Assembly: GCA_964594005.1 (NCBI GenBank)
Contig: CAZQKP010000001.1
Location: 1-40,638 of the forward strand
Source of the DNA: an uncultured Candidatus Saccharibacteria bacterium
Lineage (GTDB): Bacteria; Patescibacteriota; Minisyncoccia; Phycocordibacterales; DATDWN01
Length of the DNA stretch: 40,638 nt
Direction of reading: 5' to 3'
A program made the position numbers and the translations under genes. Under the pieces are notes generated by a model. It was not told the origin of the DNA. It saw only the letters and a list, made by a program, of their open reading frames with translations, and did no database searches. Below, one piece after another: positions 1 through 10,545 of the stretch (position 1 is its first letter; each line of letters opens with the position of its first letter).

Positions 1-245
1 GCGCCAGACCGGCGGCAGCAAGGGCCACCCAGAGGTAGTACTCTGGCACTTCACCTGCGGGGCCGGCAGGACCAGCGGAGCCAGCAAGTCCGACTGGGCC
101 GCGGGGGCCGATCGGGCCGCGGGGGCCGGCGATGGGCGCCGGATCGTGGCAGGCGGCGGGCGTGGGCGGCGCGATCTCCTGGGGGGGCGGCGAACGGAAT
201 GTTGATGAATGCAACCATCGTGAGAACCAGCCACACAATACGCAT
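1..245 (-). CDS. Partial collagen-like repeat protein, apparently frameshifted; runs off the left edge
   Basis: ATG at 245-243 opens a hydrophobic signal/TM-like N-terminus (MRIVWLVLTMVAFINIPFA). After a C7 run (G7 on + strand, 181-187) the +1 frame reads ...PIAGPRGPIGPRGPVGLAGSAGPAGPAGEVPEYYLWVALAAAGLA, with 9 consecutive G-X-Y triplets and an 18-nt internal repeat. The ATG frame itself stops at 53-51. Confidence 0.35.
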
Positions 246-279
246 AACGTCTCCTTTGAAAGAACAGTTGAAATTTTAC

Positions 280-333
280 TTCCCGTAAAAATTTTCAAAC
301 AATTTTTTAATAGTTTAAAAATTTTTACGGGAA
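280..333. repeat. Perfect 16-bp inverted repeat (ttcccgtaaaaatttt / aaaatttttacgggaa) with a 22-nt AT-rich loop
   Basis: Arms at 280-295 and 318-333 are exact reverse complements. It lies about 35 nt upstream of the minus-strand ATG at 245, so it could be an operator or a terminator. Confidence 0.9.
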
Positions 334-644
334 CCCAACCTTGGTTGGGGAGTAGCTCGGCCTCGAGCAAAGAACTAAGTGCTGCGATCTAAGGTCGTTC
401 CCGCAGCGGAGTGAGTTTGCAAGAGCGACCCCTTGCTTTTACCACCGGTTTGCCACCGGTTCACTCTTTTGACCACAACCTGCGCCCTTGTGAGGCCTCC
501 GGTTGTCCGAGTTGTCTTTCGACTCCATTGTGAGCTTATTGCGATCCACCCTGGCCGGGGCTTTTCGCATGTGAGGGGTCAAATCCTCACTTCCCCTGAC
601 GGGGCCTGGCCCTACGCTCACAACTTTCCCCCATCTTTACCTTG

Positions 645-663
645 GCAAACTTTGAAAGTTTGC
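645..663. repeat. 19-nt palindrome gcaaactttGaaagtttgc
   Basis: 9-nt arms around a single central base. The half-site GCAAA(C)TTTG resembles the arms of the 986-1031 inverted repeat. Confidence 0.85.
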
Positions 664-985
664 TGCAGCACTTTGTCAGTAATGGGAGAGGCATTCACAA
701 AGAGGCTTGCGACCCCTAAGCTTAGCCACTGACTTTCCAACTTGCAGGTGTTGGCACACTTCCGTCTCGTCGACGGAAACCCTTCGGGATGCAACTCCCT
801 CGGGCCAGCTTGTCTTCTAACTCTCTCCACGCTGCCAAGCGTGAAAAGCGAATTTGGCTAAGAGACCCCGGGCTGGTAGCCCTTCTCTCAACCACTTTCG
901 TGGAGATTTGGATTACCTTGCGGCAAACCCTGCCTCGGACGTGCTGACCGAGACAAATCGTCCATTGCTGGACTGTCATGCTCTC

Positions 986-1031
986 CAGAGCAAATTTGAT
1001 TTTCAAAAAATTGAAGACCAAATTTGCTCTG
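986..1031. repeat. Perfect 13-bp inverted repeat (cagagcaaatttg / caaatttgctctg) with a 20-nt loop
   Basis: Arms at 986-998 and 1019-1031 are exact reverse complements. Confidence 0.9.
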
Positions 1032-1218
1032 TGAGTTGGGTTGGAAAATTTTTTCAAAAAACTTCTGTTTCGTCCTGAATGTAGAAGGACTCATCAGGTG
1101 AAGTACACACTTCACGACAGCAACAGCTTTTTCAAGCTGGGTTATTTTTGTGACTCGGTTAACCAACCGCGTATGCATTTTCTGTTCCCAGGGCTGCGAT
1201 AACCCCCCGGCCCCCACA

Positions 1219-1425
1219 CTAGTGGGAAATAGAACCTGAGTTTCGCTGGAGATATTCTTCCAGGTACAACTCAGCTTGCTCAGGGGCTCCGTGCTTTTCA
1301 AGCCACAGAGCATAAGCAAGGGCGTCCGTCTCGGTTTCCCGAAACTTCGGCCGCACTATCCGGATGCCATCCGTAAACGAGTACGTGGCAATCTCGGCGC
1401 CCAGTAGGATTTTCACCTGGGGCAT
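1219..1425 (-). CDS. Hypothetical 68-aa protein; the only protein-like ORF in the GC-rich block
   Basis: MPQVKILLGAEIATYSFTDGIRIVRPKFRETETDALAYALWLEKHGAPEQAELYLEEYLQ... has a balanced, globular-looking composition, unlike the Arg/Pro/Ser-rich neighbouring ORFs. No family recognised and no clear SD. Confidence 0.25.
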   Translation of the reverse strand: MPQVKILLGAEIATYSFTDGIRIVRPKFRETETDALAYALWLEKHGAPEQAELYLEEYLQRNSGSISH

Positions 1426-1644
1426 TTTGAAAGAGCAATCAAGAGTGGGGGGTTTTGGGTTCGGATGGGATCGGAGACTTCAGGGTGCAAATCCTGAGCT
1501 CCATGCCTAACTTGATCCCTTTTGGTTCACCTCTGGGTGCGAATCGCCTCACGCGTCGTCTTATCCCAGCAATCAGGTTCCGCACAACCACGCCTTGCCA
1601 GCGCGATCCCGTATGCGGTATTTCAACCCGGCAACCCTACCCGT

Positions 1645-1688
1645 CCCCCCATTCCAGAAGGCAAAACTTGTTTTCTGGAATGGAGGGG
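1645..1688. repeat. Inverted repeat / hairpin (ccccccattccagaa ... ttctggaatggagggg)
   Basis: 11 perfect bp (ccattccagaa / ttctggaatgg) plus 3-4 G:C pairs after a one-base bulge; 13-nt loop. Confidence 0.85.
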
Positions 1689-1977
1689 CGGGAGCCTCTC
1701 CATGTTGTTAAACTGCAGTTTTTTGAGACTGTGCCGCGGGACCGTGATAAAAATCTGGACGGTTGCCTCGCTGGTGTTCACTTGTCTCAATCAACTTACA
1801 CGGACAGTATATACCCAATCGGTTTTTTTGTCAAGTTGTTTTGACATTTTCTTTTTATATATAAAAATATAGCCTTATTTATAGCTTTATTTTAGAAATC
1901 TATTTTAATTTAAGTTGACTTTTAATTAACTATGAAGGAATCCTAGAACACATGTAATTTTGATTTGTTAATTTGAT

Positions 1978-2006
1978 TTGACAAATAAAAAGGATAGGTA
2001 TATACT
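1978..2006 (+). promoter_or_regulatory. Near-consensus sigma70-type promoter TTGACA-17nt-TATACT
   Basis: TTGACA at 1978-1983, a 17-nt spacer, TATACT at 2001-2006. Two tandem 13-nt repeats (taattttgatttg 1955-1967, ttaatttgatttg 1968-1980) run into the -35. Confidence 0.5.
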
Positions 2007-2012
2007 GTTTGT

Positions 2013-2320
2013 AGGAGGTTCCCTTTATGCAGGACTGAGGCCGGGACCCGTCCGATAAGCCATGCCGAGAGCGTGGGTCGGACGGAGGGTGCCCCTCCTG
2101 TTCACATAGAGCGTCGTTGGTCAGAAGAATCGGTTACTTTTCGGAAGGACGGTTCAAAGGAGTCGCAGATCATGTTGGACGAGTAGCCGCAATGCCGACA
2201 GCGATCGTCGGCTAGGCGGAGGGCGAAAGCCCACAGCACAAGGCATCGCGACATCAGCGCGCGTTGCCACACGGGTCCGACCGGGAGAGAGTTTCACTCT
2301 TTTCTCCCGGCCGGACCTTC
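2013..2320 (+). ncRNA. Candidate structured non-coding RNA of about 300 nt, class unknown
   Basis: A GC-rich island in AT-rich DNA, with no ORF beyond a 3-codon ATG-CAG-GAC-TGA. It follows the promoter at 1978-2006. Nested hairpin 2048-2055/2078-2085 (8 bp) encloses ccatgc/gcgtgg; gggc-GAAA-gccc tetraloop hairpin at 2221-2232; gccgac/gtcggc hairpin near 2196-2210. It ends in a strong stem at 2274-2317. Confidence 0.4.
2274..2317 (+). terminator. Strong GC-rich stem-loop followed by a T-rich tract
   Basis: ggtccg/ccggacc plus ccgggagag/ctcttttctcccgg pair into about 17 bp, followed by ttcattatttattc. It sits 4 nt from the stop of the convergent TrmB-like gene, so it may act in both directions. 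Confidence 0.5.
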
Positions 2321-2321
2321 A

Positions 2322-3074
2322 TTATTTATTCTTTAAATTATCAAAGGCTAAATTAAAAAGGCTCTTTAAAGTTTCGGCCAGATCTTTGCTCCTAATATAG
2401 ACTGCGGAAAGATGCTTGCCTAAAATACTTATTCGAACCTTGTCCTTATAGATACTAATGTCAGCGTAAAAGGGATACTTCTTTTCATCAACCTTAACCC
2501 TCTGAGCCAATTCATCTGATTGTTTCTCGCCCTGGGACCAGTTATACAAAACTTTAGCTTTTACTTGTTTTGTTTTTCTTATTTTTTTGTATTTATCAGA
2601 TTCCCTATCCTTAAACACGTCATCCAGTAAATCCTTGGAATACATAATATAAATGGGGGAGTCATCCGGATTGTCATCATAAACATCTTCGTTAATACTC
2701 ACTATACCCTCCTTACCGGAATAAAATTTTACTTCAGGCTTTTCGCCAACTTCTCTCTGAACACTTTTTATTTGAGGAATCACATCATTAATAAATCGCT
2801 CCTTAAGCTCACTTAAAGCAGATTCTTTCCTCTCAAGATAGGTCTTGAGTCTTTCTGGAGGTTCAGCCACATATCTAAATTTTTTATTTTCTTCAACCTC
2901 TGTAACCAATCCCTTTTTAGAGAGAGAGCTTAAAATTGTATAAACTGTTGGTCTCTTTATCTTGGTCTTTTGAGCCAATTCTGCAACAGAAGCTTCCTCG
3001 AGCTGAATTAACTGTAAATATATCTTGGCTTCCTTGTCACTTAGACCAGCTTCTTCGAGATATTTTTCAAACAT
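2322..3074 (-). CDS. TrmB-family HTH transcriptional regulator
   Basis: N-terminus MFEKYLEEAGLSDKEAKIYLQLIQLEEASVAELAQKTKIKRPTVYTILSSLSKKGLV matches the TrmB winged-helix signature; 250 aa. Confidence 0.75.
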   Translation of the reverse strand: MFEKYLEEAGLSDKEAKIYLQLIQLEEASVAELAQKTKIKRPTVYTILSSLSKKGLVTEVEENKKFRYVAEPPERLKTYLERKESALSELKERFINDVIPQIKSVQREVGEKPEVKFYSGKEGIVSINEDVYDDNPDDSPIYIMYSKDLLDDVFKDRESDKYKKIRKTKQVKAKVLYNWSQGEKQSDELAQRVKVDEKKYPFYADISIYKDKVRISILGKHLSAVYIRSKDLAETLKSLFNLAFDNLKNK

Positions 3075-3138
3075 AACCCCATAATAGTATAAATAATTAC
3101 TCTTGCAAAGATGAGAAATTTGTGATATCTTGGGGTCA

Positions 3139-3405
3139 ATGCTTACGAAAAATAAGAAATCAAGGGTTGTGAAGGATGTGCAGGTACACGATAAAGATAC
3201 TGGCTCGCCAGAAGTTCAGATTGCTTTGCTTTCCAAGAGAATTGATGAGTTAGCCAGTCATTTAAAGAAAAATCCTAAGGATAACCACTCTAGAAGGGGA
3301 CTTTTACAGATGGTGGCTACTAGAAAGACCCACATGAAGTATTTGGAGAAGAAAAATCCGAGACGCTATAACTCTTTAGTTAAAAAGATTGGGCTTAAGA
3401 AATAA
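3139..3405 (+). CDS. rpsO: 30S ribosomal protein S15
   Basis: DTGSPEVQIALLSKRIDELASHLKKNPKDNHSRRGLLQMVATRKTHMKYL is classic S15. The ATG at 3139 is preferred over the track's TTG at 3130. Confidence 0.95.
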   Translation: MLTKNKKSRVVKDVQVHDKDTGSPEVQIALLSKRIDELASHLKKNPKDNHSRRGLLQMVATRKTHMKYLEKKNPRRYNSLVKKIGLKK

Positions 3406-3600
3406 TCTCGTTATCGCCTTTTCAAAGCTCGCATAAATTTCTACTGAAATTTTGCTCTGCTCGACAATCAAGCAATTAATCTCCTCGATACATAGCCTTC
3501 TCGCAAACTCGCTTCGCTCAAACAGTGCTTCAGGCTTATTTTATCTTCGTCGTTAATTGCTAATTGTCTGCGCAAGGCTCTGAAAAAGTGATAACTCGAT
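3405..3600. repeat. Long imperfect inverted repeat / extended hairpin of about 195 nt directly after rpsO
   Basis: Outer arms atctcgttatcgccttttcaaagc (3405-3428) vs gctctgaaaaagtgataactcgat (3577-3600). Middle arms gacaatcaagcaattaa (about 3463-3479) vs ttaattgctaattgtc (about 3553-3568). Inner gata..agcct vs aggct..tatc. Confidence 0.7.
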
Positions 3601-3661
3601 ATGTGATATACTAAGGGAGGAATATTTTTATAAGCGAATTTTATTATTATTTTTATAATAT

Positions 3662-4213
3662 ATGGCAGTTATTAAACACAAGAATCAGAGAGTTGGTATT
3701 TTTATAGATACACAAAATTTATATCACTCCGCAAAAAATATTTATGGTTGTAAGGTTAATTTTGGCCAAATGGTTAAAGATGGCTTGGCCGGCAGAAATT
3801 TAATACGTGCAGTTGCATATGTAATCACTACCGAATCAGGTGAAGAAAAAAGTTTTTTTGAGGCATTAGAGAAAATGGGAATTGAAACCAAAACTAAAAA
3901 CCTCCAGATTTTTTCTGGTGGGGCCAAAAAAGCAGACTGGGACGTCGGGCTAGCAGTGGATGCAATTAAACTTGCGCCGAAGTTAGACGCAGTAATCGTT
4001 TGTTCCGGTGATGGTGATTTTGTACCATTGGTAGAATATTTGAAAGTAAATGAAGGCTGTCAGGTAGAGGCTATGGCATTTGGCAAGGCATCTTCAGCTA
4101 GGTTAATTGAGGCAGTGGATGACTTTACAGATTTAGATGAACAACCTCGTAAATATCTTCTGGGTTATAGGGAAGAAAGGATGAGAAGAGCACCAAGGGT
4201 AATGGGGAAATAA
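3662..4213 (+). CDS. NYN-domain (LabA/DUF88-like) predicted RNase
   Basis: RVGIFIDTQNLYHSAK near the N-terminus and VCSGDGDFVPLVEYLK are the conserved acidic motifs of NYN/LabA proteins. Confidence 0.8.
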   Translation: MAVIKHKNQRVGIFIDTQNLYHSAKNIYGCKVNFGQMVKDGLAGRNLIRAVAYVITTESGEEKSFFEALEKMGIETKTKNLQIFSGGAKKADWDVGLAVDAIKLAPKLDAVIVCSGDGDFVPLVEYLKVNEGCQVEAMAFGKASSARLIEAVDDFTDLDEQPRKYLLGYREERMRRAPRVMGK

Positions 4214-4225
4214 ATTTTGACAAGA

Positions 4226-4249
4226 CAGCTCGCGAAAGCGGGTTGTTTT
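4226..4249 (+). terminator. Intrinsic terminator after the NYN gene
   Basis: cagctcgc-GAAA-gcgggttg: an 8-bp stem (two G:U pairs) with a GNRA loop, followed by tttt. Confidence 0.6.
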
Positions 4250-4250
4250 G

Positions 4251-4279
4251 TTGACACAGAGAAAGAAAAGGGTAGTATA
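4251..4279 (+). promoter_or_regulatory. Sigma70-type promoter: TTGACA, with TAGTAT/TATAAA-type -10
   Basis: TTGACA at 4251-4256. -10 candidates are TAGTAT (16-nt spacer, 4273-4278) or the overlapping gtataa/tataaa. Confidence 0.45.
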
Positions 4280-4284
4280 AAAAT

Positions 4285-4438
4285 GCCGAGGCCTGGGTCA
4301 GCCTCGGCCCGCCAAGCACCCAGGTGGGGAGGGCCAAAGCGGAAAACCGCGGCACCGCTGCGGACCCTCCCAAACTGGGTTAGTTCTTTCCGGCAAGTGC
4401 CAAATTTTGTACAGGCCGTCGCTACAATCTCGTAGGGA
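4285..4438 (+). ncRNA. GC-rich structured leader or small RNA, class unknown
   Basis: 8-bp hairpin gccgaggc/gcctcggc (4285-4292/4301-4308). Helix acccag/ctgggt (4318-4323/4375-4380) encloses gggaggg/ccctccc (4327-4333/4365-4371) and a gcgg-aaaa-ccgc hairpin (4339-4350). The overlapping 72-aa ORF is Arg/Pro/Ala-rich and implausible. Confidence 0.35.
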
Positions 4439-5335
4439 ATGGCTTTTTTTGTTAGAATAAATAAAATGTCTCCCGAAACTCCTAAAAAACCAGAAGAAGA
4501 ACATAAACCAATAAAAAGCCTGCGAACTTTCGCGGGAGATGTAGAAGAAGCAATTGAAAAAGAAAAGTTTTCAACGGCAACTATTGCATTGGCAGAGCAA
4601 AAAAGACGAGAGGAGAGGCACGAAAAAATAGAAGAATTTCCTGAAGTTAAAAATCGCACCAGTCTTTATATTTACGGAGCAATTGGGTTATTTGTGCTTA
4701 GTATTGTTTTAGTCGCTGGAGTTTATATCTGGCGAAATCGCCAGGATAAAAAAATAGTGGAAAGACCAGTTACTCCAATAAGTTTCACTAAATTAGATAC
4801 CTTCCCAATCGCTGGTAAAAACAAGGATGCCTTACAGACCGAGATACTGTCACAGCAAAAATCATTTAATTCCCCGATAAATTCTGTATTGTTTATAAAT
4901 TTCGTAGATACTTTTAATAAGGCAGATGATGTTAGTAGTCTAATTAGTCTAATTTTTCCAAATATTCCATCATCCCTTGCTAGATCGTTCGCAGGCAATT
5001 ATATGTTTGGTATATACGCTTACGATGTAAATGCGCCTTTTATTATTTTAAACACTAACGATTATGCCTTAAGCTATTCAGGAATGCTTAAGTGGGAAAA
5101 CAGCATACCTTACGATCTGGGCAAAATATTTAACATTACTCCAAACGCTTCAACCACCCTAAAATTTATAGACAAGTCTATAAAAAATTACGATATGCGT
5201 GTTTTAACCGACGATGCGAGAAACACACTCCTCGTTTACTCTTTTATAAATAGAAATACACTAGTAATTACTAAAAACGAAAATATTTTTTCGGCAATTG
5301 TGGCAAAATACGAGATCAGCAAACAAACTAGATAA
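4439..5335 (+). CDS. Hypothetical single-pass membrane protein
   Basis: Charged N-terminus with an LRTFAGDVEEAI motif, TM helix LYIYGAIGLFVLSIVLVAGVYIW, then an extracytoplasmic domain of about 200 aa. No named family. Confidence 0.7.
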   Translation: MAFFVRINKMSPETPKKPEEEHKPIKSLRTFAGDVEEAIEKEKFSTATIALAEQKRREERHEKIEEFPEVKNRTSLYIYGAIGLFVLSIVLVAGVYIWRNRQDKKIVERPVTPISFTKLDTFPIAGKNKDALQTEILSQQKSFNSPINSVLFINFVDTFNKADDVSSLISLIFPNIPSSLARSFAGNYMFGIYAYDVNAPFIILNTNDYALSYSGMLKWENSIPYDLGKIFNITPNASTTLKFIDKSIKNYDMRVLTDDARNTLLVYSFINRNTLVITKNENIFSAIVAKYEISKQTR

Positions 5336-5364
5336 AAATAAACCCCTTTGTTAAGATACAGATA

Positions 5365-5724
5365 ATGGAAAAAAATACAAAACATTTTGAAGACTTACTT
5401 CTGAAAGAAAAAACTCTTTTGGAAAAAGAACTTTCAACCGTGGGCAGAAAAAATCCGAAGGATTCCGATTGGGAAGCTATCGAAGGGGATGTGGTAACGG
5501 ACACGGCGGAAGAAGGCGATGTGGCGGAAGGCATCGAGGAATATGAAAAAAACAGCGCTGTTTTATCCCAATTAGAATTGCGATTGAAAGAAGTAAAAGA
5601 AGCACTAGACAAAATAAAAATGGGTAATTATGGTAAATGTGAAGTTGATGGTAACCCAATTGAGGACGATAGACTCGAAGCAAATCCTGCAGCCAAAACT
5701 TGCAAGGCACACATGAACGGGTAG
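5365..5724 (+). CDS. DksA/TraR-family protein (two-Cys variant of the zinc finger)
   Basis: Coiled-coil N-terminus, then GNYGKCEVDGNPIEDDRLEANPAAKTCKAH, matching the DksA/TraR C-terminal pattern (G.C..CG..I...RL...P....C..C) with only two Cys retained. Confidence 0.7.
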   Translation: MEKNTKHFEDLLLKEKTLLEKELSTVGRKNPKDSDWEAIEGDVVTDTAEEGDVAEGIEEYEKNSAVLSQLELRLKEVKEALDKIKMGNYGKCEVDGNPIEDDRLEANPAAKTCKAHMNG

Positions 5725-5735
5725 AATGCTAGATT

Positions 5736-7310
5736 ATGGCAGTTTCCAAAATATATTCTGCCCAGGCCAATCTCCTCAATGCACAAATAATTGATATTGA
5801 AGTTGATCTTTCGCGAGGGCTTCATTCTTTTTCTATTGTAGGCTTAGCTGATAAATCAGTAGATGAATCCAAAGACAGAGTCTCTGCGGCCATAAAAAAT
5901 TCTGGTTGGAAATCACCAAAAAATAAAAACCAGAAAGTAGTGGTGTCTTTAGCGCCTGCAGATGTCAAAAAAGAAGGTCCGATTTTTGATTTGCCAATTG
6001 CACTAGCATATCTAATCGCGGCAGAAGAGATTAAAGCTGATTTTAAAAATCGTTTGTTCATTGGCGAACTTTCTTTGGACGGGGGACTGCGCGGAGTTAA
6101 GGGTGCCTTGCCAATTACTCAAAAAGCTAAGAAATCTGGGTTTAAAGAAATATTTTTACCCAAAGAAAATGCGGAGGAAGCCTCGAATATTTCAGGCATA
6201 AAAGTCTATGGCGCTGAGACACTTTTGGATGTGATTAAACACATCAACACCAAAGAGATCGTGGGAGAAGATGGCGAAAAAATTTTGGAGCATAAAGAAC
6301 TTAAGCCTTTTGTGAATAAAAAGAAAAAAATCCAAAATTTGGAGGTGGAATTAGATTTTGCGGATGTGAAAGGTCAGGAAGCAGCTAAAAGAGGGCTCGA
6401 GATTGCAGCGGCAGGGGGACATAATATTTTAATGTACGGTCCGCCAGGCACAGGTAAAACAATGCTCGCCCGTGCCTTTACATATCTTTTGCCCGCCCTT
6501 TCTTTTGAGGACAAACTAGAAGTTACATCGATTTATTCAATTGGCGGAATGTTAAATGAATCTTTGGTGGAACACCCACCATTTAGATCGCCTCATCATA
6601 CTGCCTCGTATGTTTCCCTTGTGGGGGGTGGAGCAAATTTAAAACCAGGTGAAGTTACTTTGGCTCACAAAGGTGTTTTATTTTTAGATGAATTTCCGGA
6701 ATTTGATAAAAAAGTATTAGAGAGTTTGAGGCAGCCATTGGAAGATAGAGAAGTAACAGTCTCTCGTGCCAAAGGTTCGGTTAAATATCCGGCGCATTTT
6801 ATTTTAGTTGCCACCATGAATCCTTGTCCTTGCGGCAATTATGGCGTTAAGGGTAAAGAATGTACTTGTTCCGCTCAAGCAATCGAAAGATACAAAAGAA
6901 AATTGTCGGGGCCAATTGTAGATCGCATTGATTTATGGGTGGAGGTCTCCAAAGTGGAGCACCAGAAATTAACTGATGCGAGAGAATTACACGAAGGTAC
7001 AGAAAAAATTAAACCAAGAGTGTTAAATGCTAGAAAAATTCAAGAAAGCAGATTTAAAAGTGGTAAATTGAAGGTAAAAACAAATGCAGAATTAACAGCA
7101 CGAGATTTGGTTAAACATATTGTGCTTAAAGACAGTGTAAAAGAACTTTTGAATAAATCCGCGAAGCAATTGGATCTCTCCGCACGCTCGTATCACCGCA
7201 TAATTAAAATTGCGCGAACAATTGCAGACCTGGGGGGAAGTCGCGAGATTGAGGAAAATCATATTTTGGAAGCACTGCAATACAGACCGAAAAAATATCA
7301 AGCTGTTTAA
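5736..7310 (+). CDS. comM: YifB/ComM-family Mg-chelatase-like AAA+ ATPase
   Basis: Lon-protease-like N-domain, Walker A MYGPPGTGKTM, Walker B VLFLDEFPEF, a CPCG...C.C zinc motif and a C-terminal SARSYHRIIKIARTIADL. Confidence 0.92.
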   Translation: MAVSKIYSAQANLLNAQIIDIEVDLSRGLHSFSIVGLADKSVDESKDRVSAAIKNSGWKSPKNKNQKVVVSLAPADVKKEGPIFDLPIALAYLIAAEEIKADFKNRLFIGELSLDGGLRGVKGALPITQKAKKSGFKEIFLPKENAEEASNISGIKVYGAETLLDVIKHINTKEIVGEDGEKILEHKELKPFVNKKKKIQNLEVELDFADVKGQEAAKRGLEIAAAGGHNILMYGPPGTGKTMLARAFTYLLPALSFEDKLEVTSIYSIGGMLNESLVEHPPFRSPHHTASYVSLVGGGANLKPGEVTLAHKGVLFLDEFPEFDKKVLESLRQPLEDREVTVSRAKGSVKYPAHFILVATMNPCPCGNYGVKGKECTCSAQAIERYKRKLSGPIVDRIDLWVEVSKVEHQKLTDARELHEGTEKIKPRVLNARKIQESRFKSGKLKVKTNAELTARDLVKHIVLKDSVKELLNKSAKQLDLSARSYHRIIKIARTIADLGGSREIEENHILEALQYRPKKYQAV

Positions 7311-8341
7311 AAAGGATTTTTGGCACCGCGGATTTCAAAGTGTAAATGCACCCCAGTAGCTTTGCCAGTTGCGCCCATGCGACCAATAACCTGGCCCTGA
7401 TTTACGTGATCACCCACAGAAACTAGGGCCGCGCTCAAGTGACCATAAAGAGTCTGGGTACCATTACCATGTTTTATAACTATGTAAGAACCATAGCCTC
7501 CATTCCAACCAGAATTTTTGGAAATAATTACATCACCCTCTGCGGCAGCATAAATATTTGCTCCGTAGGATGAAGCTAAATCTACTCCATTGTGTCCATG
7601 AATACCTTGAGTTTTGATTCCACCAATAATTGGTCTCATATAGTATCCATCATAAACAGGATAAGAAGACCCTTGAGTGCCCACGCCCGTCTGGTTGTAT
7701 TTTTTAGAACCAGAGTTAGAAGTTGGTGCCATTTCTCCATCTGGAATTATAATCACATCTCCAATTGAAAGTTTGGAATTTTTAGTTAAATTGTTGTAAG
7801 AGAGAATTTCATTTAGATCACCCTTATACATCTTGGCAATACTCAAAAGCGTATCGCCGGACTTAACTACGTGTTGCACTCCCGAAATTGGCAAAATAAC
7901 TAATTTTTGCCCTGGGGTGAGGTTATTACTGGTTAAATCATTACCCCAACGAATTGTATTAACAGAAACACCAAACATTTTGGCTATATCAGGTAAAGTA
8001 TCCCCCGGCCTTACCACATAAATACTAATTTGATCATTGGTCGATGTTTTATCCTCCGAAACTTGAATATCCGGCGAAAGAGAGGTGCCGCCAACAATAG
8101 CTGGATCTGAGTCAGTGGTAGTAGAATTCTGGCCAGGTGAAATCACGGCCTGCAGTAAAGCAATTGTTTGAGAATTTGATTCAATTTCCTCTGCTTCTAC
8201 CTTACTGCCGCCCCCAAAACAGGACAAAATGTCAAAAAATCCGCAGGCACTTACGGAAATTGGTGTAAAAAATAACGCCAAAATAAGCGGATTGACCACT
8301 AAAACCGAAACTATGTTCACCGTTGCAAGCCACGATCCCAC
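7307..8341 (-). CDS. Secreted peptidoglycan hydrolase: 2x LysM + M23 metallopeptidase
   Basis: LysM repeats YVVRPGDTLPDIAKMFGVSVNTI and HVVKSGDTLLSIAKMYKGDLNEI. M23 motifs HNGVDLA and GATGKATGVHLHFE. N-terminal TM anchor. Confidence 0.9.
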   Translation of the reverse strand: MGSWLATVNIVSVLVVNPLILALFFTPISVSACGFFDILSCFGGGSKVEAEEIESNSQTIALLQAVISPGQNSTTTDSDPAIVGGTSLSPDIQVSEDKTSTNDQISIYVVRPGDTLPDIAKMFGVSVNTIRWGNDLTSNNLTPGQKLVILPISGVQHVVKSGDTLLSIAKMYKGDLNEILSYNNLTKNSKLSIGDVIIIPDGEMAPTSNSGSKKYNQTGVGTQGSSYPVYDGYYMRPIIGGIKTQGIHGHNGVDLASSYGANIYAAAEGDVIISKNSGWNGGYGSYIVIKHGNGTQTLYGHLSAALVSVGDHVNQGQVIGRMGATGKATGVHLHFEIRGAKNPF

Positions 8342-8457
8342 ATTTCTGACTTTTTCAAAAAAAGTAGCTCTTGTGTTTTTAAGACCTGTATCTTGCTTTG
8401 GATCTTTTTTTAAACCTGATATGAATTTAAAATTAAGACCATTCAGAATTGCCTGAA

Positions 8458-8489
8458 TAAATAAATGGCTCTGTTAAGCCATTTATTTA
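8458..8489. repeat. Perfect 13-bp inverted repeat (taaataaatggct / agccatttattta), 6-nt loop, in a divergent promoter region
   Basis: Arms at 8458-8470 and 8477-8489 are exact reverse complements. It lies between the starts of the M23 gene (-) and pcrA (+). Confidence 0.85.
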
Positions 8490-8616
8490 CAACATTACTG
8501 TATTAATTAAATTATATCGAAACTTTATAACAGAGGTCAATATTAATTGCCCACAGAATGTAAACAAGCTATTTTGTCAAAAAATAAAGAGAAAATTCCT
8601 ATGTTATAATCGCCAA

Positions 8617-10545
8617 GTGAATTATCTCGATTCTCTCAACGAAAACCAAAAAAAAGCTGCTCTCACCACAGAAGGACCAGTCATGATAGTCGCGGGAGCG
8701 GGCGCTGGGAAAACCAAAGCTATAACTTTCCGGATTTTTCATTTAATTCAAACCGGGGTTCCGGCAGAAAAAATCTTGGCTATTACGTTTACTAACAAAG
8801 CAGCCAAAGAAATGCGGGAGAGAGTGTTAAAAATGCTGGGAGAAGATGAAACTAGTTATAAATTTGGCAAAAAACTCCCTTTTATCAGTACCTTTCATGC
8901 TTTGGGAGTCCAAATAATTAAAGAGAATAACAGTTTACTTAATTTGCCAAAAAATTTTGGTATTTTAGATAAAAGTGACAGCAAAAAAGCCTTGAAAGAT
9001 GCTCTAGTTTCCGTAAACATAGACCCCAAAGAACATCTAGATGGAATTAGAAACATAATTTCTAGAGAAAAAGGTAGCGGAGTAAGCTTATCTAATTTTA
9101 TTAACCGAGAAAGTTATGACTTTACAGGTGATTTAGTCAAAAAAGCTTGGAGTAAGTACGAAGAAATTTTAAAAAAAGAAAATTCTCTAGATTTTGATGA
9201 TCTTTTGTTAAAAGCTTTGAAACTATTAGAAAATCAGAACATTTTGGAAAAATATCAAAATAGATTTTTGTATGTTCATATAGATGAATACCAGGATACA
9301 AACAAAGTTCAACACAAAATTGCTGAACTTTTGGCTAAAAAAAATAAAAATATTTGTGTAGTGGGAGATACGGATCAAAATATTTATAGCTGGCGAGGAG
9401 CAGAAATTAAAAATATGCTTCACTTTGAGAAAATCTACCCAGAGGTACAAACATTTTTTTTAGAGCAAAACTACCGTTCTACCAAAAACATTCTGTCGGT
9501 GGCAAATGAGATAATTGAAAAAAATAACTTTAGAATTCCTAAAAAACTTTTTACAGATAATGAAGTGGGGGAAAAAATTACTATTTTTAATGGCAGATCC
9601 GAAACAGAAGAGGCCCATTTTATCGCTCTTAAATCTAAGGAATTAATCGCGCGAGGTGTTCAATCAGAGGAAATTGCTGTTTTATATCGTGCTAATTTTC
9701 AATCGAGGGTCTTGGAAGAAGCATTTCTCTCCTATGGAGTACCCTATCAAATGCTGGGTACAAAATTTTTTGAAAGAAAGGAAATAAAAGATGTCATGAG
9801 TTTCTTGCGCCTCGCCTTAAATGGCGAAAATTTGATTGACTTAACCAGAGTTATTAATATTCCCCCACGTGGGATTGGTAAAATAACCTTACGTAAGATT
9901 GTTGAAGGCAAAGAAGATGAATTGCCAGATAATGTAAAAAATAAAATTAAGGACTTTCGAAAAATGGTCGATGGCTTTAAAACGGACGTGGAGAAAAGTA
10001 AGCCAAGTAATGCTCTTAAAGGGATTATCCAAAAATCAGGTATAGAAAAAATGTACGCCACAGATTCGGAAGAAGATATAGATAGGCTAGAAAATATTAT
10101 GGAGCTGGTTAGTTTGGGTAAAGAATATGATATTTATCCAATTCCAGAGGGTATCGAGAAATTCTTAACTGACACATCACTCACATCGGATCAAGATCTT
10201 TTAGACGGCAGTAAAAACGGAGTTAAACTTATGACGGTTCACTCTGCCAAGGGCTTGGAATTTGATTATGTTTTTATATCTGGTTTGGAAGACGGTTTAT
10301 TTCCGCACAATAAAAACGCAGAGAGAAAGAAAGGTGAGGATCTTGAAGAAGAAAGAAGACTATTTTATGTAGCTGTAACTCGAGCCAAAAATAAACTTTT
10401 TTTGACTTGGGCACAGTTTAGAACAATCTTTGGGTCATTTGAGGCAAACCTTTCATCCGAATTCATCAATGATATTTCTTCAAAATATATTGAGAATGAA
10501 AAATCCCTATTTGGCGTTGAATCAGCATATAGTATAGATTTCTAG
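8617..10545 (+). CDS. pcrA: UvrD/PcrA-type ATP-dependent DNA helicase (GTG start)
   Basis: LNENQKKAALTTEGPVMIVAGAGAGKTK (Walker A), HIDEYQDTN (motif II), VGDTDQNIYSWRGA, QNYRST, TVHSAKGLEF, and RRLFYVAVTRAKNKL. Confidence 0.93.
   Translation: MNYLDSLNENQKKAALTTEGPVMIVAGAGAGKTKAITFRIFHLIQTGVPAEKILAITFTNKAAKEMRERVLKMLGEDETSYKFGKKLPFISTFHALGVQIIKENNSLLNLPKNFGILDKSDSKKALKDALVSVNIDPKEHLDGIRNIISREKGSGVSLSNFINRESYDFTGDLVKKAWSKYEEILKKENSLDFDDLLLKALKLLENQNILEKYQNRFLYVHIDEYQDTNKVQHKIAELLAKKNKNICVVGDTDQNIYSWRGAEIKNMLHFEKIYPEVQTFFLEQNYRSTKNILSVANEIIEKNNFRIPKKLFTDNEVGEKITIFNGRSETEEAHFIALKSKELIARGVQSEEIAVLYRANFQSRVLEEAFLSYGVPYQMLGTKFFERKEIKDVMSFLRLALNGENLIDLTRVINIPPRGIGKITLRKIVEGKEDELPDNVKNKIKDFRKMVDGFKTDVEKSKPSNALKGIIQKSGIEKMYATDSEEDIDRLENIMELVSLGKEYDIYPIPEGIEKFLTDTSLTSDQDLLDGSKNGVKLMTVHSAKGLEFDYVFISGLEDGLFPHNKNAERKKGEDLEEERRLFYVAVTRAKNKLFLTWAQFRTIFGSFEANLSSEFINDISSKYIENEKSLFGVESAYSIDF

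Follow-up and report, generated by a model that had tools for sequence, protein, structure and literature searches.

The locus studied here raises a simple question: what does a GC-rich transcription unit of about 300 nucleotides do in an ultra-small bacterium, if it contains no gene in the usual sense? The unit lies near the start of a stretch of 40,638 nucleotides (the window), which forms the first 40.6 kb of contig CAZQKP010000001.1 from an uncultured Candidatus Saccharibacteria bacterium (assembly GCA_964594005.1). The host is an ultra-small bacterium of the candidate phyla radiation (CPR)/Paceibacteria. Its genome, labelled G000 in this analysis, where other G-numbers denote related genomes and L-numbers individual loci, comprises 581 kb in 78 contigs, is 77% complete and has an overall GC content of 39.5%. 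As judged from its own promoter and terminator, the segment 2013-2320 of the plus strand is a discrete, stand-alone small RNA gene of ~300 nt. An earlier inspection of the letters by a model (the sequence-only reading) had taken it for an orphan RNA without an open reading frame (ORF). We established that the RNA belongs to a family with conserved synteny, that the translation signals of this family are conserved, and that one subtype has a covarying fold.

To find relatives, a BLASTN search with 2010-2320 was run against 60 related genomes, as the sequence-only reading had proposed, and it returned the self-match only. Homology was therefore traced by synteny, behind an orthologous neighbouring gene. 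This gene, at 2322-3074 on the minus strand, encodes a 250-aa winged-helix regulator of the TrmB family (Pfam TrmB, E 3.8e-17) and is convergent to the RNA, so that the RNA is not a 5' leader, as had been argued. A search with the TrmB protein retrieved orthologues, which 7 of the 25 genomes in the genus carry; next to paralogous TrmB genes the RNA is absent. In G007, whose TrmB protein is 76% identical, the DNA past the 3' end of the gene has its parts in the same order: TTGACA..TATACT in an AT-rich spacer, then cAGAGGTTCCCaatATGcatgacgagTGA, then a long hairpin and, next to the TrmB stop codon, a terminator. G007 carries GAGGTTCCCaaTATGCAtGAC where G000 has its first mini-ORF, and a 21-nt 5' motif is common to both genomes. 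The layout was alike in eight more orthologous loci, which came from the genus and three further families of the same order, and a scan of the GTDB representative genomes with a TrmB alignment yielded 80 loci. The convergent layout was observed in 9/9 orthologous loci and in most of the 80 Paceibacteria loci. On this genomic evidence, the orthologous TrmB group is the constant partner of the RNA, and the unit, rather than being an orphan, belongs to a conserved locus made up of the RNA, the TrmB gene and a hammerhead-bearing block described below.

Other sequence searches were less productive. A 20-nt motif search in the genus gave G007 as the sole true match, the three others being chance matches in coding DNA, and all 49 matches of a 21-nt pattern ending in GAC in metagenome contigs fell in unrelated protein genes. 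A covariance model of the first module (R1), built from 10 genus-level relatives with G000 excluded, missed G000 with default filters and found nothing in 151 genomes of the order. With the filters off, in a 401-nt search, it placed G000 at 2009-2133(+) in the correct register with 7.5 bits (E 0.02). A single narrow covariance model does not suffice for so divergent a family. Because G000 scores poorly, its membership rests on synteny, the invariant signals and the 5' motif in common with G007, by which we assign the G000 RNA, as a divergent member, to an RNA family that spans the Paceibacteria. No description of a TrmB-linked RNA with twin mini-ORFs was found in Rfam or in the literature outside subscription journals, and the literature so covered held nothing relevant on structured RNAs of CPR bacteria or on hammerheads in Patescibacteria/Parcubacteria.

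By alignment and pattern counts, the mini-ORFs are the most conserved feature of the family, and its only deeply conserved content consists of Shine-Dalgarno (SD) sequences and mini-genes. In G000, the first SD (AGGAGG, 2013-2018) is followed after 8 nt by ATG CAG GAC TGA (MQD*, 2027-2038). Both had been noticed before, and the second pair had been overlooked: AAGGAG (2157-2162), 9 nt before ATG TTG GAC GAG TAG (MLDE*, 2172-2186). Hence the earlier statement that the unit has no ORF does not hold. Both are SD-led ORFs of three to four codons with the same third codon, as in the relatives, where a second M-X-D module likewise occurs; the family module is an SD, 5-9 nt, AUG-NNN-GAY and a stop, with two modules per RNA. 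Two SD-mini-ORF modules were found in 9/9 orthologous loci. The first reads MQD*, MHDE*, MSD*, MID*, MND*, MHD*, MHD*, MNDY* and MND*, and the second MLDE*, MQDD*, MRD*, MGD*, MHD*, MND*, (GUG)DD*, MHDL* and (GUG)GDR*. When the nine RNAs were aligned, no columns were invariant except three G's of the SD (G8, G10 and G11), the AUG and the GAC. Across the G000 genome, a loose SD-start-NNN-GAY-stop expression matched 7 times, where shuffles predict 5; the sole two matches with ATG and a strong SD were those of this RNA, 145 nt apart.

The conservation was then quantified in the 77 of the 80 loci with enough flanking DNA (46 kb), using the pattern SD-(3-14 nt)-ATG/GTG-NNN-GAY-(0-1 codon)-stop within 600 nt beyond the TrmB stop codon. 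The pattern matched 88 times on the convergent strand, which encodes the RNA, and not once on the opposite strand; shuffles gave 0.2 matches, and the control, 211 kb made up of TrmB genes with the DNA upstream, gave 1. When codon 3 was left free, 99 of 172 SD-start sites had GAC (84) or GAT (15), and the next commonest codon occurred 5 times. The stop followed codon 3 directly in 74 of these 99 (TAG 39, TAA 22, TGA 13), and TGG was never found there. The family modules start with AUG or, rarely, GUG, and with no other codon. The use of all three stops but never Trp, the restriction to AUG and GUG and the tolerance of both GAC and GAT indicate selection on translation signals and not on a mere RNA motif. 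The codon usage differs from that of ordinary genes: GAC makes up 85% of the modules, whereas GAT is used at 73% in G000 genes, and UAG accounts for 53% of mini-ORF stops, whereas TAA ends 60% of G000 genes. GAC, the minor Asp codon of G000 (27%), is decoded by the sole tRNA-Asp(GUC) of this genome.

Loci without M-X-D keep the twin layout but differ in the third codon. These variants (L070, L077, L083, L098 and L103-L106) have Gly, His or Trp in place of Asp. Gly is found in L070 (MHG*/MYG..), L077 (MNG*/MFG*) and L083 (MHG*/MWG*), His in L098 (MDH*/VNH*) and L104 (MSH*), and Trp in L106 (MNW*/MLW*) and L105 (MNW*/MWW..). Codon 3 is lineage-dependent, yet matched across both modules of one RNA, as far as the loci in hand indicate. 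Since the Gly variants use GGA, GGC and GGT, selection appears to act at the amino-acid level rather than on a single codon. The free second residue, together with the changing third one, argues that the decoding of one codon or tRNA is functional, and not the peptide product.

The reading that we favour, with confidence standing about midway, is that of a ribosome-engaging minigene RNA, a translation brake of the CreT or lambda bar type. The RNA would engage ribosomes at its two minigenes, each composed of an SD, an AUG (rarely GUG), a codon that is free, a third that is fixed and a stop, which mostly follows directly, and repeated translation of an ORF of 3-4 codons would tie up ribosomes or the single tRNA(Asp), so that translation would be braked. 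Two controls may operate: RNA structure would hide the SD, the start codon, codon 3 and the stop, and transcription would be governed by the linked TrmB-like protein, as the obligatory linkage suggests. We infer that the mini-ORFs are translated, that they act as a brake and that TrmB exerts control. The reading is favoured because the strong promoter, SD and start, the very short ORF, the critical codon and the stable hairpin match CreT and the bar minigenes. The accessory, tightly linked distribution of RNA and TrmB resembles that of toxin-guard pairs and was also counted in its favour. Very short ORFs are known to cause peptidyl-tRNA drop-off (PMC2490762).

Several points weigh against the brake. 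Only one codon is fixed, whereas CreT-type toxins need two consecutive critical codons, and in ~25% of the modules, such as MLDE* of G000, the fixed codon is not the last sense codon. The tRNAs for Asp, Gly, His and Trp are not rare. The initiation region is predicted to be strongly sequestered, so that translation may be rare. The TrmB operator is a candidate, the RNA unit is predicted from sequence, BLASTN found no relative, and G000 fits the R1 model poorly.

The transcription signals agree with a free-standing unit that has a strong promoter and terminator of its own. The sigma-70-type promoter TTGACA-17-TATACT at 1978-2006(+), recognised earlier, matches 11 of 12 consensus positions, and the same design (TTGACAAATAAAA..GGTATATACT) was seen in G012, G018, L073, L084 and G007. 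Transcription would start near 2012-2014, which puts the first SD at the extreme 5' end of the predicted RNA. Two tandem 13-nt repeats, TGTAATTTTGATT (1953-1965) and TGTTAATTTGATT (1966-1978), which are 85% alike, abut the -35 box and include its first base; they had been placed 2 nt away (1955-1980 instead of 1953-1978). The repeats are kept in part, as TTTGATTTGACAA, in G004 and G012, and represent a candidate operator. The GC content of 0.555-0.575 at 2001-2300, compared with 0.235 at 1801-2000 and ~0.35-0.36 in the downstream TrmB gene, bears out the description of ~300 GC-rich nucleotides in AT-rich DNA.

The terminator (2274-2335, plus strand) consists of the stem 2274-2288/2303-2317 followed by a U-rich tail. 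The strong terminal stem and T-rich tail reported before are present, with arms of 15 nt (93% complementary, directly preceding ttcattatttattc) instead of ~17 bp. A simple terminator scan did not list this stem, as its loop is above the limit of that method. The tail (2318-2335) runs over the final codons of the TrmB-like gene, including its stop at 2322-2324, and a strong terminator adjoins the TrmB stop codon in 9/9 loci examined. In the relatives, the terminators are GC stems of 10-18 bp with U tracts. A sigma-70 promoter of its own and a strong intrinsic terminator, ~250-400 nt apart, are thus features of the family that are also present in G000.

The fold that may gate the mini-ORFs is best resolved in one of two subtypes, named A and B in this analysis. 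Type A comprises 26 non-redundant RNAs, for example those of L035-L062. A hairpin of 13-22 bp (P3) follows the mini-ORF, and its loop carries CAU 38-47 nt past the AUG; 13 of 15 pairs in P3 covary. The P3 loop pairs with the start-codon region, from -2 to +4, to form a pseudoknot, whose flanking pairs are kept in 24-26 of the 26 RNAs through 3-6 pair types. The pairing of each RNA with its own loop scored 128, compared with 84 +/- 5 for permuted loops, and 0 of 5000 permutations was as high; the comparison of own and cross pairings in the pseudoknot gave p = 2.5e-6. A further helix, P1, joins (N)GACU to AGUC(N'). For P3, the pseudoknot core and P1 in a MAFFT alignment, 96.1% of the cells are paired, while shuffles reached 79.1% and slid registers at most 47%, and 16 pairs change on both sides. 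It follows from this fold that, in type A, base pairing takes in the start codon, the second codon, the Asp codon and the first base of the stop. The type-A SD tends to pair with a downstream CCUCC/CAUCUC, a weak tendency (p = 0.035), and the predicted mean unpaired probability of the first SD is 0.26, compared with 0.36 for the whole RNA. Pairing of the stop-codon region was not significant in the own-versus-cross comparison (p = 0.37); the stop/partner pairs seen in relatives are UGA with UCA and UAG with CUA. The earlier view that the GC enrichment marks a structural RNA is half right: the fold covaries in relatives, yet what is conserved in the letters is a set of translation signals.

The RNAs of the G000 genus make up type B, for which RNAalifold gave a P1 (GACUA/UAGUC), a short P2 and a P3 hairpin, and no clear start-codon pseudoknot. 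G000 is, by alignment, a divergent member of type B in which the type-A fold is weakly seen; covariation, the check proposed earlier, gave strong support in type A. The G000 RNA is predicted to be highly structured: its minimum free energy (MFE) of -133.6 kcal/mol (z = -3.77) was matched by 0 of 100 shuffles. The hairpins named in the sequence-only reading were all recovered in the MFE structure, which contains the nested hairpin CCGUCCGAU..(CCAUGC CGAGA GCGUGG)..GUCGGACGG at 2048-2085(+), GCCGAC/GUCGGC, GGGC-GAAA-GCCC and the terminal stem. The hairpin 2048-2085 is specific to G000, being an insertion relative to its genus in the MAFFT alignment. A short hairpin, GGAGGG-UGC-CCCUCC at 2083-2097(+), which contains an anti-SD-like CCUCC, aligns with the P3 hairpin of the family. 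CAUAGAG at 2105-2111(+) could pair with CUUUAUG, a segment (2023-2029) that takes in the start codon, and is possibly the counterpart of the start-codon pseudoknot of other lineages; the match of 7 bp is at chance level (shuffles average ~6) and does not lie within a hairpin loop. In the covariance-model alignment, UGGUCAG (2118-2124, plus strand) is the partner of GACUG/CUGA of the first mini-ORF, covering the Asp and stop codons, with P1 shrunk to GACUG/UGGUC. Further downstream, the hairpins GCCGAC/GUCGGC (2194-2212) and GGGC-GAAA-GCCC (2221-2232), in the plus-strand segment 2194-2232, are predicted in both the MFE and the centroid structure. By prediction, the first SD is mostly paired in G000 (unpaired probability 0.24), and the second has a value of 0.18.

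On the other side of the RNA gene, a mirror-image promoter (TTGACA-17-TATACT, 1834-1806 on the minus strand, by promoter scan), which had also escaped the sequence-only reading, would drive a GC-rich, ORF-poor block (300-1800) with a hammerhead and a 68-aa ORF. A repeat scan found the palindrome TGTCAA-N6-TTGACA at 1829-1846, which is conserved in 8/9 loci, and beyond their hexamers both promoters have TTGACAAA..AAAA..GGTATATACTGT in common. The palindrome and the extra common bases form a candidate TrmB operator and suggest co-regulation of two divergent RNA units. The hammerhead core is of type III (CUGAUGAG..CGAAAC, helices I-III; 1120-1065, minus strand), scores 28 bits, under the Rfam cut-off, and is the only such core in the G000 assembly. 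In relatives, the same block carries 1-5 better hammerheads on the same strand, with up to 43.7 bits, and a regular-expression search for cores in the 80 loci gave 55 on the block strand and 0 on the other. In 6 loci, an orthologue of Ro60 with TROVE and vWA_Ro60 domains lies inside the block; the island may deal with RNA quality control or repair, as this content hints. From these comparisons, the TrmB gene, the RNA and the divergent hammerhead block constitute a recurrent three-part locus, which is accessory. The sequence-only reading had allowed that the segment might belong to a foreign or chimeric left block. Block and RNA have mirror-image promoters in common and are found together again in other genomes; the junction is thus biological and not an assembly chimera.

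The surroundings gave further observations. A 614-aa Ro60 orthologue (Pfam TROVE, vWA_Ro60) is encoded at 7402-9243(+) of L024 (G044), and others are found in L035, L037, L040, L041, L056 and L095; YrlA and Y_RNA had no match in the Ro60-bearing loci. The 68-aa ORF at 1219-1425(-) (MPQVKILLGAEIATY...) has a weak TPR-like match. Homologues stand at the corresponding position in L081 (66% identity) and, with 44-46%, in G012 (L025/L058), so that the ORF is probably a genuine small gene lying upstream of the hammerhead. Positions 1-370(-), at the contig end, hold the start (~76% GC) of a gene for a secreted collagen-like (Gly-X-Y) protein, in which the ATG at 245 is out of frame with the repeat; the SD region of this gene, TTCAAAGGAGACG, is near-identical to the region of the second SD of the RNA (2153-2165). 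The neighbours of the RNA in G000 are the TrmB-like gene, rpsO, a gene with a NYN domain and the hammerhead block. The rpsO-NYN-298aa-119aa-524aa block at 3130-7310 of the window is inverted relative to TrmB in G007 (C17, 9354-13750; L022), which places the TrmB/sRNA/hammerhead locus at a rearrangement boundary.

The main rival of the brake is an RNA that senses the state of a single tRNA or amino acid, which we consider possible with perhaps a quarter of our confidence. Scarce or damaged Asp-tRNA(Asp) would stall the ribosome with GAC in the A site, the gating helices would be held open, and the refolded RNA would signal to TrmB and to the hammerhead/Ro60 island. The sensor would account well for the fixed position 3, occupied by one amino acid (Asp, Gly as GGA and GGC, His or Trp) that is matched in both modules, and for the fact that position 3, and not the last codon, is the conserved property. 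It also fits the location of the whole mini-ORF inside covarying helices that a ribosome would melt, and the adjacent island with hammerheads and, in 6 loci, a Ro60 orthologue. The output path, however, was not found. Complementarity between the terminator and upstream sequence was no better within than between RNAs (p = 0.19 and 0.98), giving no conserved antiterminator in the family-wide test. Pairing of the RNA with the divergent leader was not specific (p = 0.97), and that with the TrmB initiation region was marginal (p = 0.04), so that specific pairing is not supported. Moreover, there is no downstream gene in cis, and one codon is sensed, fewer than in classical leader peptides. A bolder version, in which the unit represents a new class of free-standing ribosome-gated RNA, namely a tRNA-integrity sensor with TrmB switching on the hammerhead/Ro60 island, is rather doubtful. 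We are similarly hesitant about its molecular picture, in which the start codon and a lineage-specific probe codon would be clamped by anticodon-like strands, CAU on AUG and GUC on GAC.

A purely structural or protein-binding RNA, in which the SD, AUG and GAC letters would be helix, tertiary or decoy elements and never be translated, is improbable. All these letters are indeed base-paired in the type-A fold, and the first SD is predicted to be more paired than the average of the RNA, as given above. However, three stop codons occur at the end of the modules and UGG never does, AUG or GUG and the SD spacing are retained in subtypes of different fold, and the synonymous variation of GAC/GAT and of GGA/GGC/GGT points to the codon level. 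A CsrB/RsmZ-type decoy for CsrA was rejected: no CsrA was found above the cut-off in 21 genomes, which also speaks against a protein-binding role, and the RNA has only two GGA sites, each with a start at SD spacing.

A ribosome-dependent attenuator, whose terminator read-through would give antisense RNA to the convergent TrmB gene, appears very unlikely. The convergent layout is constant, and in G000 GGCCGGGA (2039-2046) is able to pair with the 3' terminator arm at UCCCGGCC. This match is a mere 6-8-mer at chance level, though, the family-wide test gave no conserved antiterminator, and the terminators are very strong (GC stems of 10-18 bp with U tracts). A leader-peptide attenuator was likewise rejected, given the convergent next gene and the negative own-versus-cross complementarity test. 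Finally, an artefact of a chimeric contig end or a 62-aa protein made by TGA read-through can hardly be correct: the window begins at a contig end, 1-2320 is richer in GC than the remainder, and TGA read as sense opens a 62-codon frame, but the three-part layout recurs in many independent assemblies, relatives have TAG or TAA at the equivalent place, 44 of 257 long G000 ORFs end in TGA, and no suppressor tRNA was found, by which read-through and a selenoprotein were rejected.

Known RNA classes were also searched. The Rfam covariance search suggested in the sequence-only reading placed the region in no catalogued class, in agreement with its failure to recognise RNase P, tmRNA or SRP RNA. With Rfam 15, which includes the models of RNase P, tmRNA, SRP and 6S RNA, nothing in the window reached the gathering score; at E <= 10, a search of 1-3200 gave nothing relevant, and the RNA itself had only a chance-level match to Pyrobac-1. 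ARAGORN found no tRNA or tmRNA in the window. An identity as tmRNA was rejected, as relatives with this RNA, such as G007, have a normal tmRNA elsewhere. In the G000 assembly, ARAGORN gave no tmRNA and the Rfam tmRNA model only sub-threshold matches, while 18 of 21 relatives have one; this absence most likely reflects a gap in the 77%-complete assembly. No CRISPR-like repeat-spacer structure was found in 1-3200.

If the RNA acts through ORFs of 3-4 codons, these would be among the shortest genes under selection across a bacterial class, and the mini-ORF toxin principle, found recently with CreT, would reach past CRISPR loci and take in a chromosomal RNA whose partner is an ordinary transcription factor, in CPR bacteria, whose regulatory RNAs are almost unknown. 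The lineage-specific, module-matched codon 3 offers a direct test of whether a single tRNA species serves as target or signal. The covarying pseudoknot, which hides a start codon in an RNA that looks non-coding, offers a clean model of structural translation gating. The link to hammerheads and Ro60 suggests a stress or addiction module centred on RNA, in bacteria not yet growable alone; a tRNA-integrity sensor, if true, would be a translation-coupled one in bacteria that lack most known stress regulators.

Among known systems, the minigenes of lambda bar and engineered minigenes of 2-6 codons exert an effect set by the tRNA of the last decoded codons and not by the peptide, and Pth counteracts it. 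The likeness lies in the SD, the ORF of two to four codons and the stop, and a Pth gene is present in G000; the bar minigenes, in contrast, lie within a phage transcript and have no promoter, terminator, gating fold or regulator partner of their own. The leaders of B. subtilis vmlR and Listeria lmo0919 are antibiotic-responsive ribosome sensors with a three-codon upstream ORF. They are similar in that ribosome occupancy of an SD-led ORF of about three codons remodels the RNA, but they are 5' leaders with a terminator and antiterminator, whereas the RNA here has no downstream gene and no conserved antiterminator. In type I toxin mRNAs and in the operator pseudoknot of E. coli rpsO, long-range pairing or a pseudoknot sequesters the initiation region. 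As there, the SD and start codon of the family RNAs are locked in structure, which would make translation conditional; those mRNAs encode real proteins, whereas the ORFs here have 3-4 codons and a free second residue.

The closest comparison is with the CreT RNA toxins of CreTA modules, which are known from Haloarcula, Halobacterium and P. aeruginosa (PMC8501985; bioRxiv 10.64898/2026.06.02.729485). Mutational evidence supports the importance of the strong SD, efficient start, mini-ORF, critical codons and hairpin of CreT (PMC8501985), and the P. aeruginosa CreT uses proline codons (bioRxiv 10.64898/2026.06.02.729485). The RNA described here differs in several respects. It has neither the CRISPR/CreA partner nor the adjacent cas genes that repress CreT, its constant neighbour being the TrmB-type regulator, and it carries two modules. 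Only its third codon is fixed and the second is free, whereas CreT has two consecutive critical codons, rare or Pro, after the start; the fixed Asp, Gly, His and Trp codons are not read by rare tRNAs. In type A, the initiation region lies within a covarying pseudoknot. Toxicity has been shown for CreT, while our knowledge of the present RNA comes from genome sequences. The likeness is nevertheless extensive. Both are free-standing small RNAs with a strong promoter, and each is linked to a gene set, which in the case of CreT represses it. Both have a strong SD, an efficient start and a mini-ORF (4-6 codons in CreT and 3-4 here), all of which are present in G000, followed by a stable GC-rich hairpin (2048-2085 in G000 and P3 in the relatives). 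A leaderless start may take the place of the SD in CreT. In both, the critical codon varies with the lineage, being Arg, Ile or Pro in CreT.

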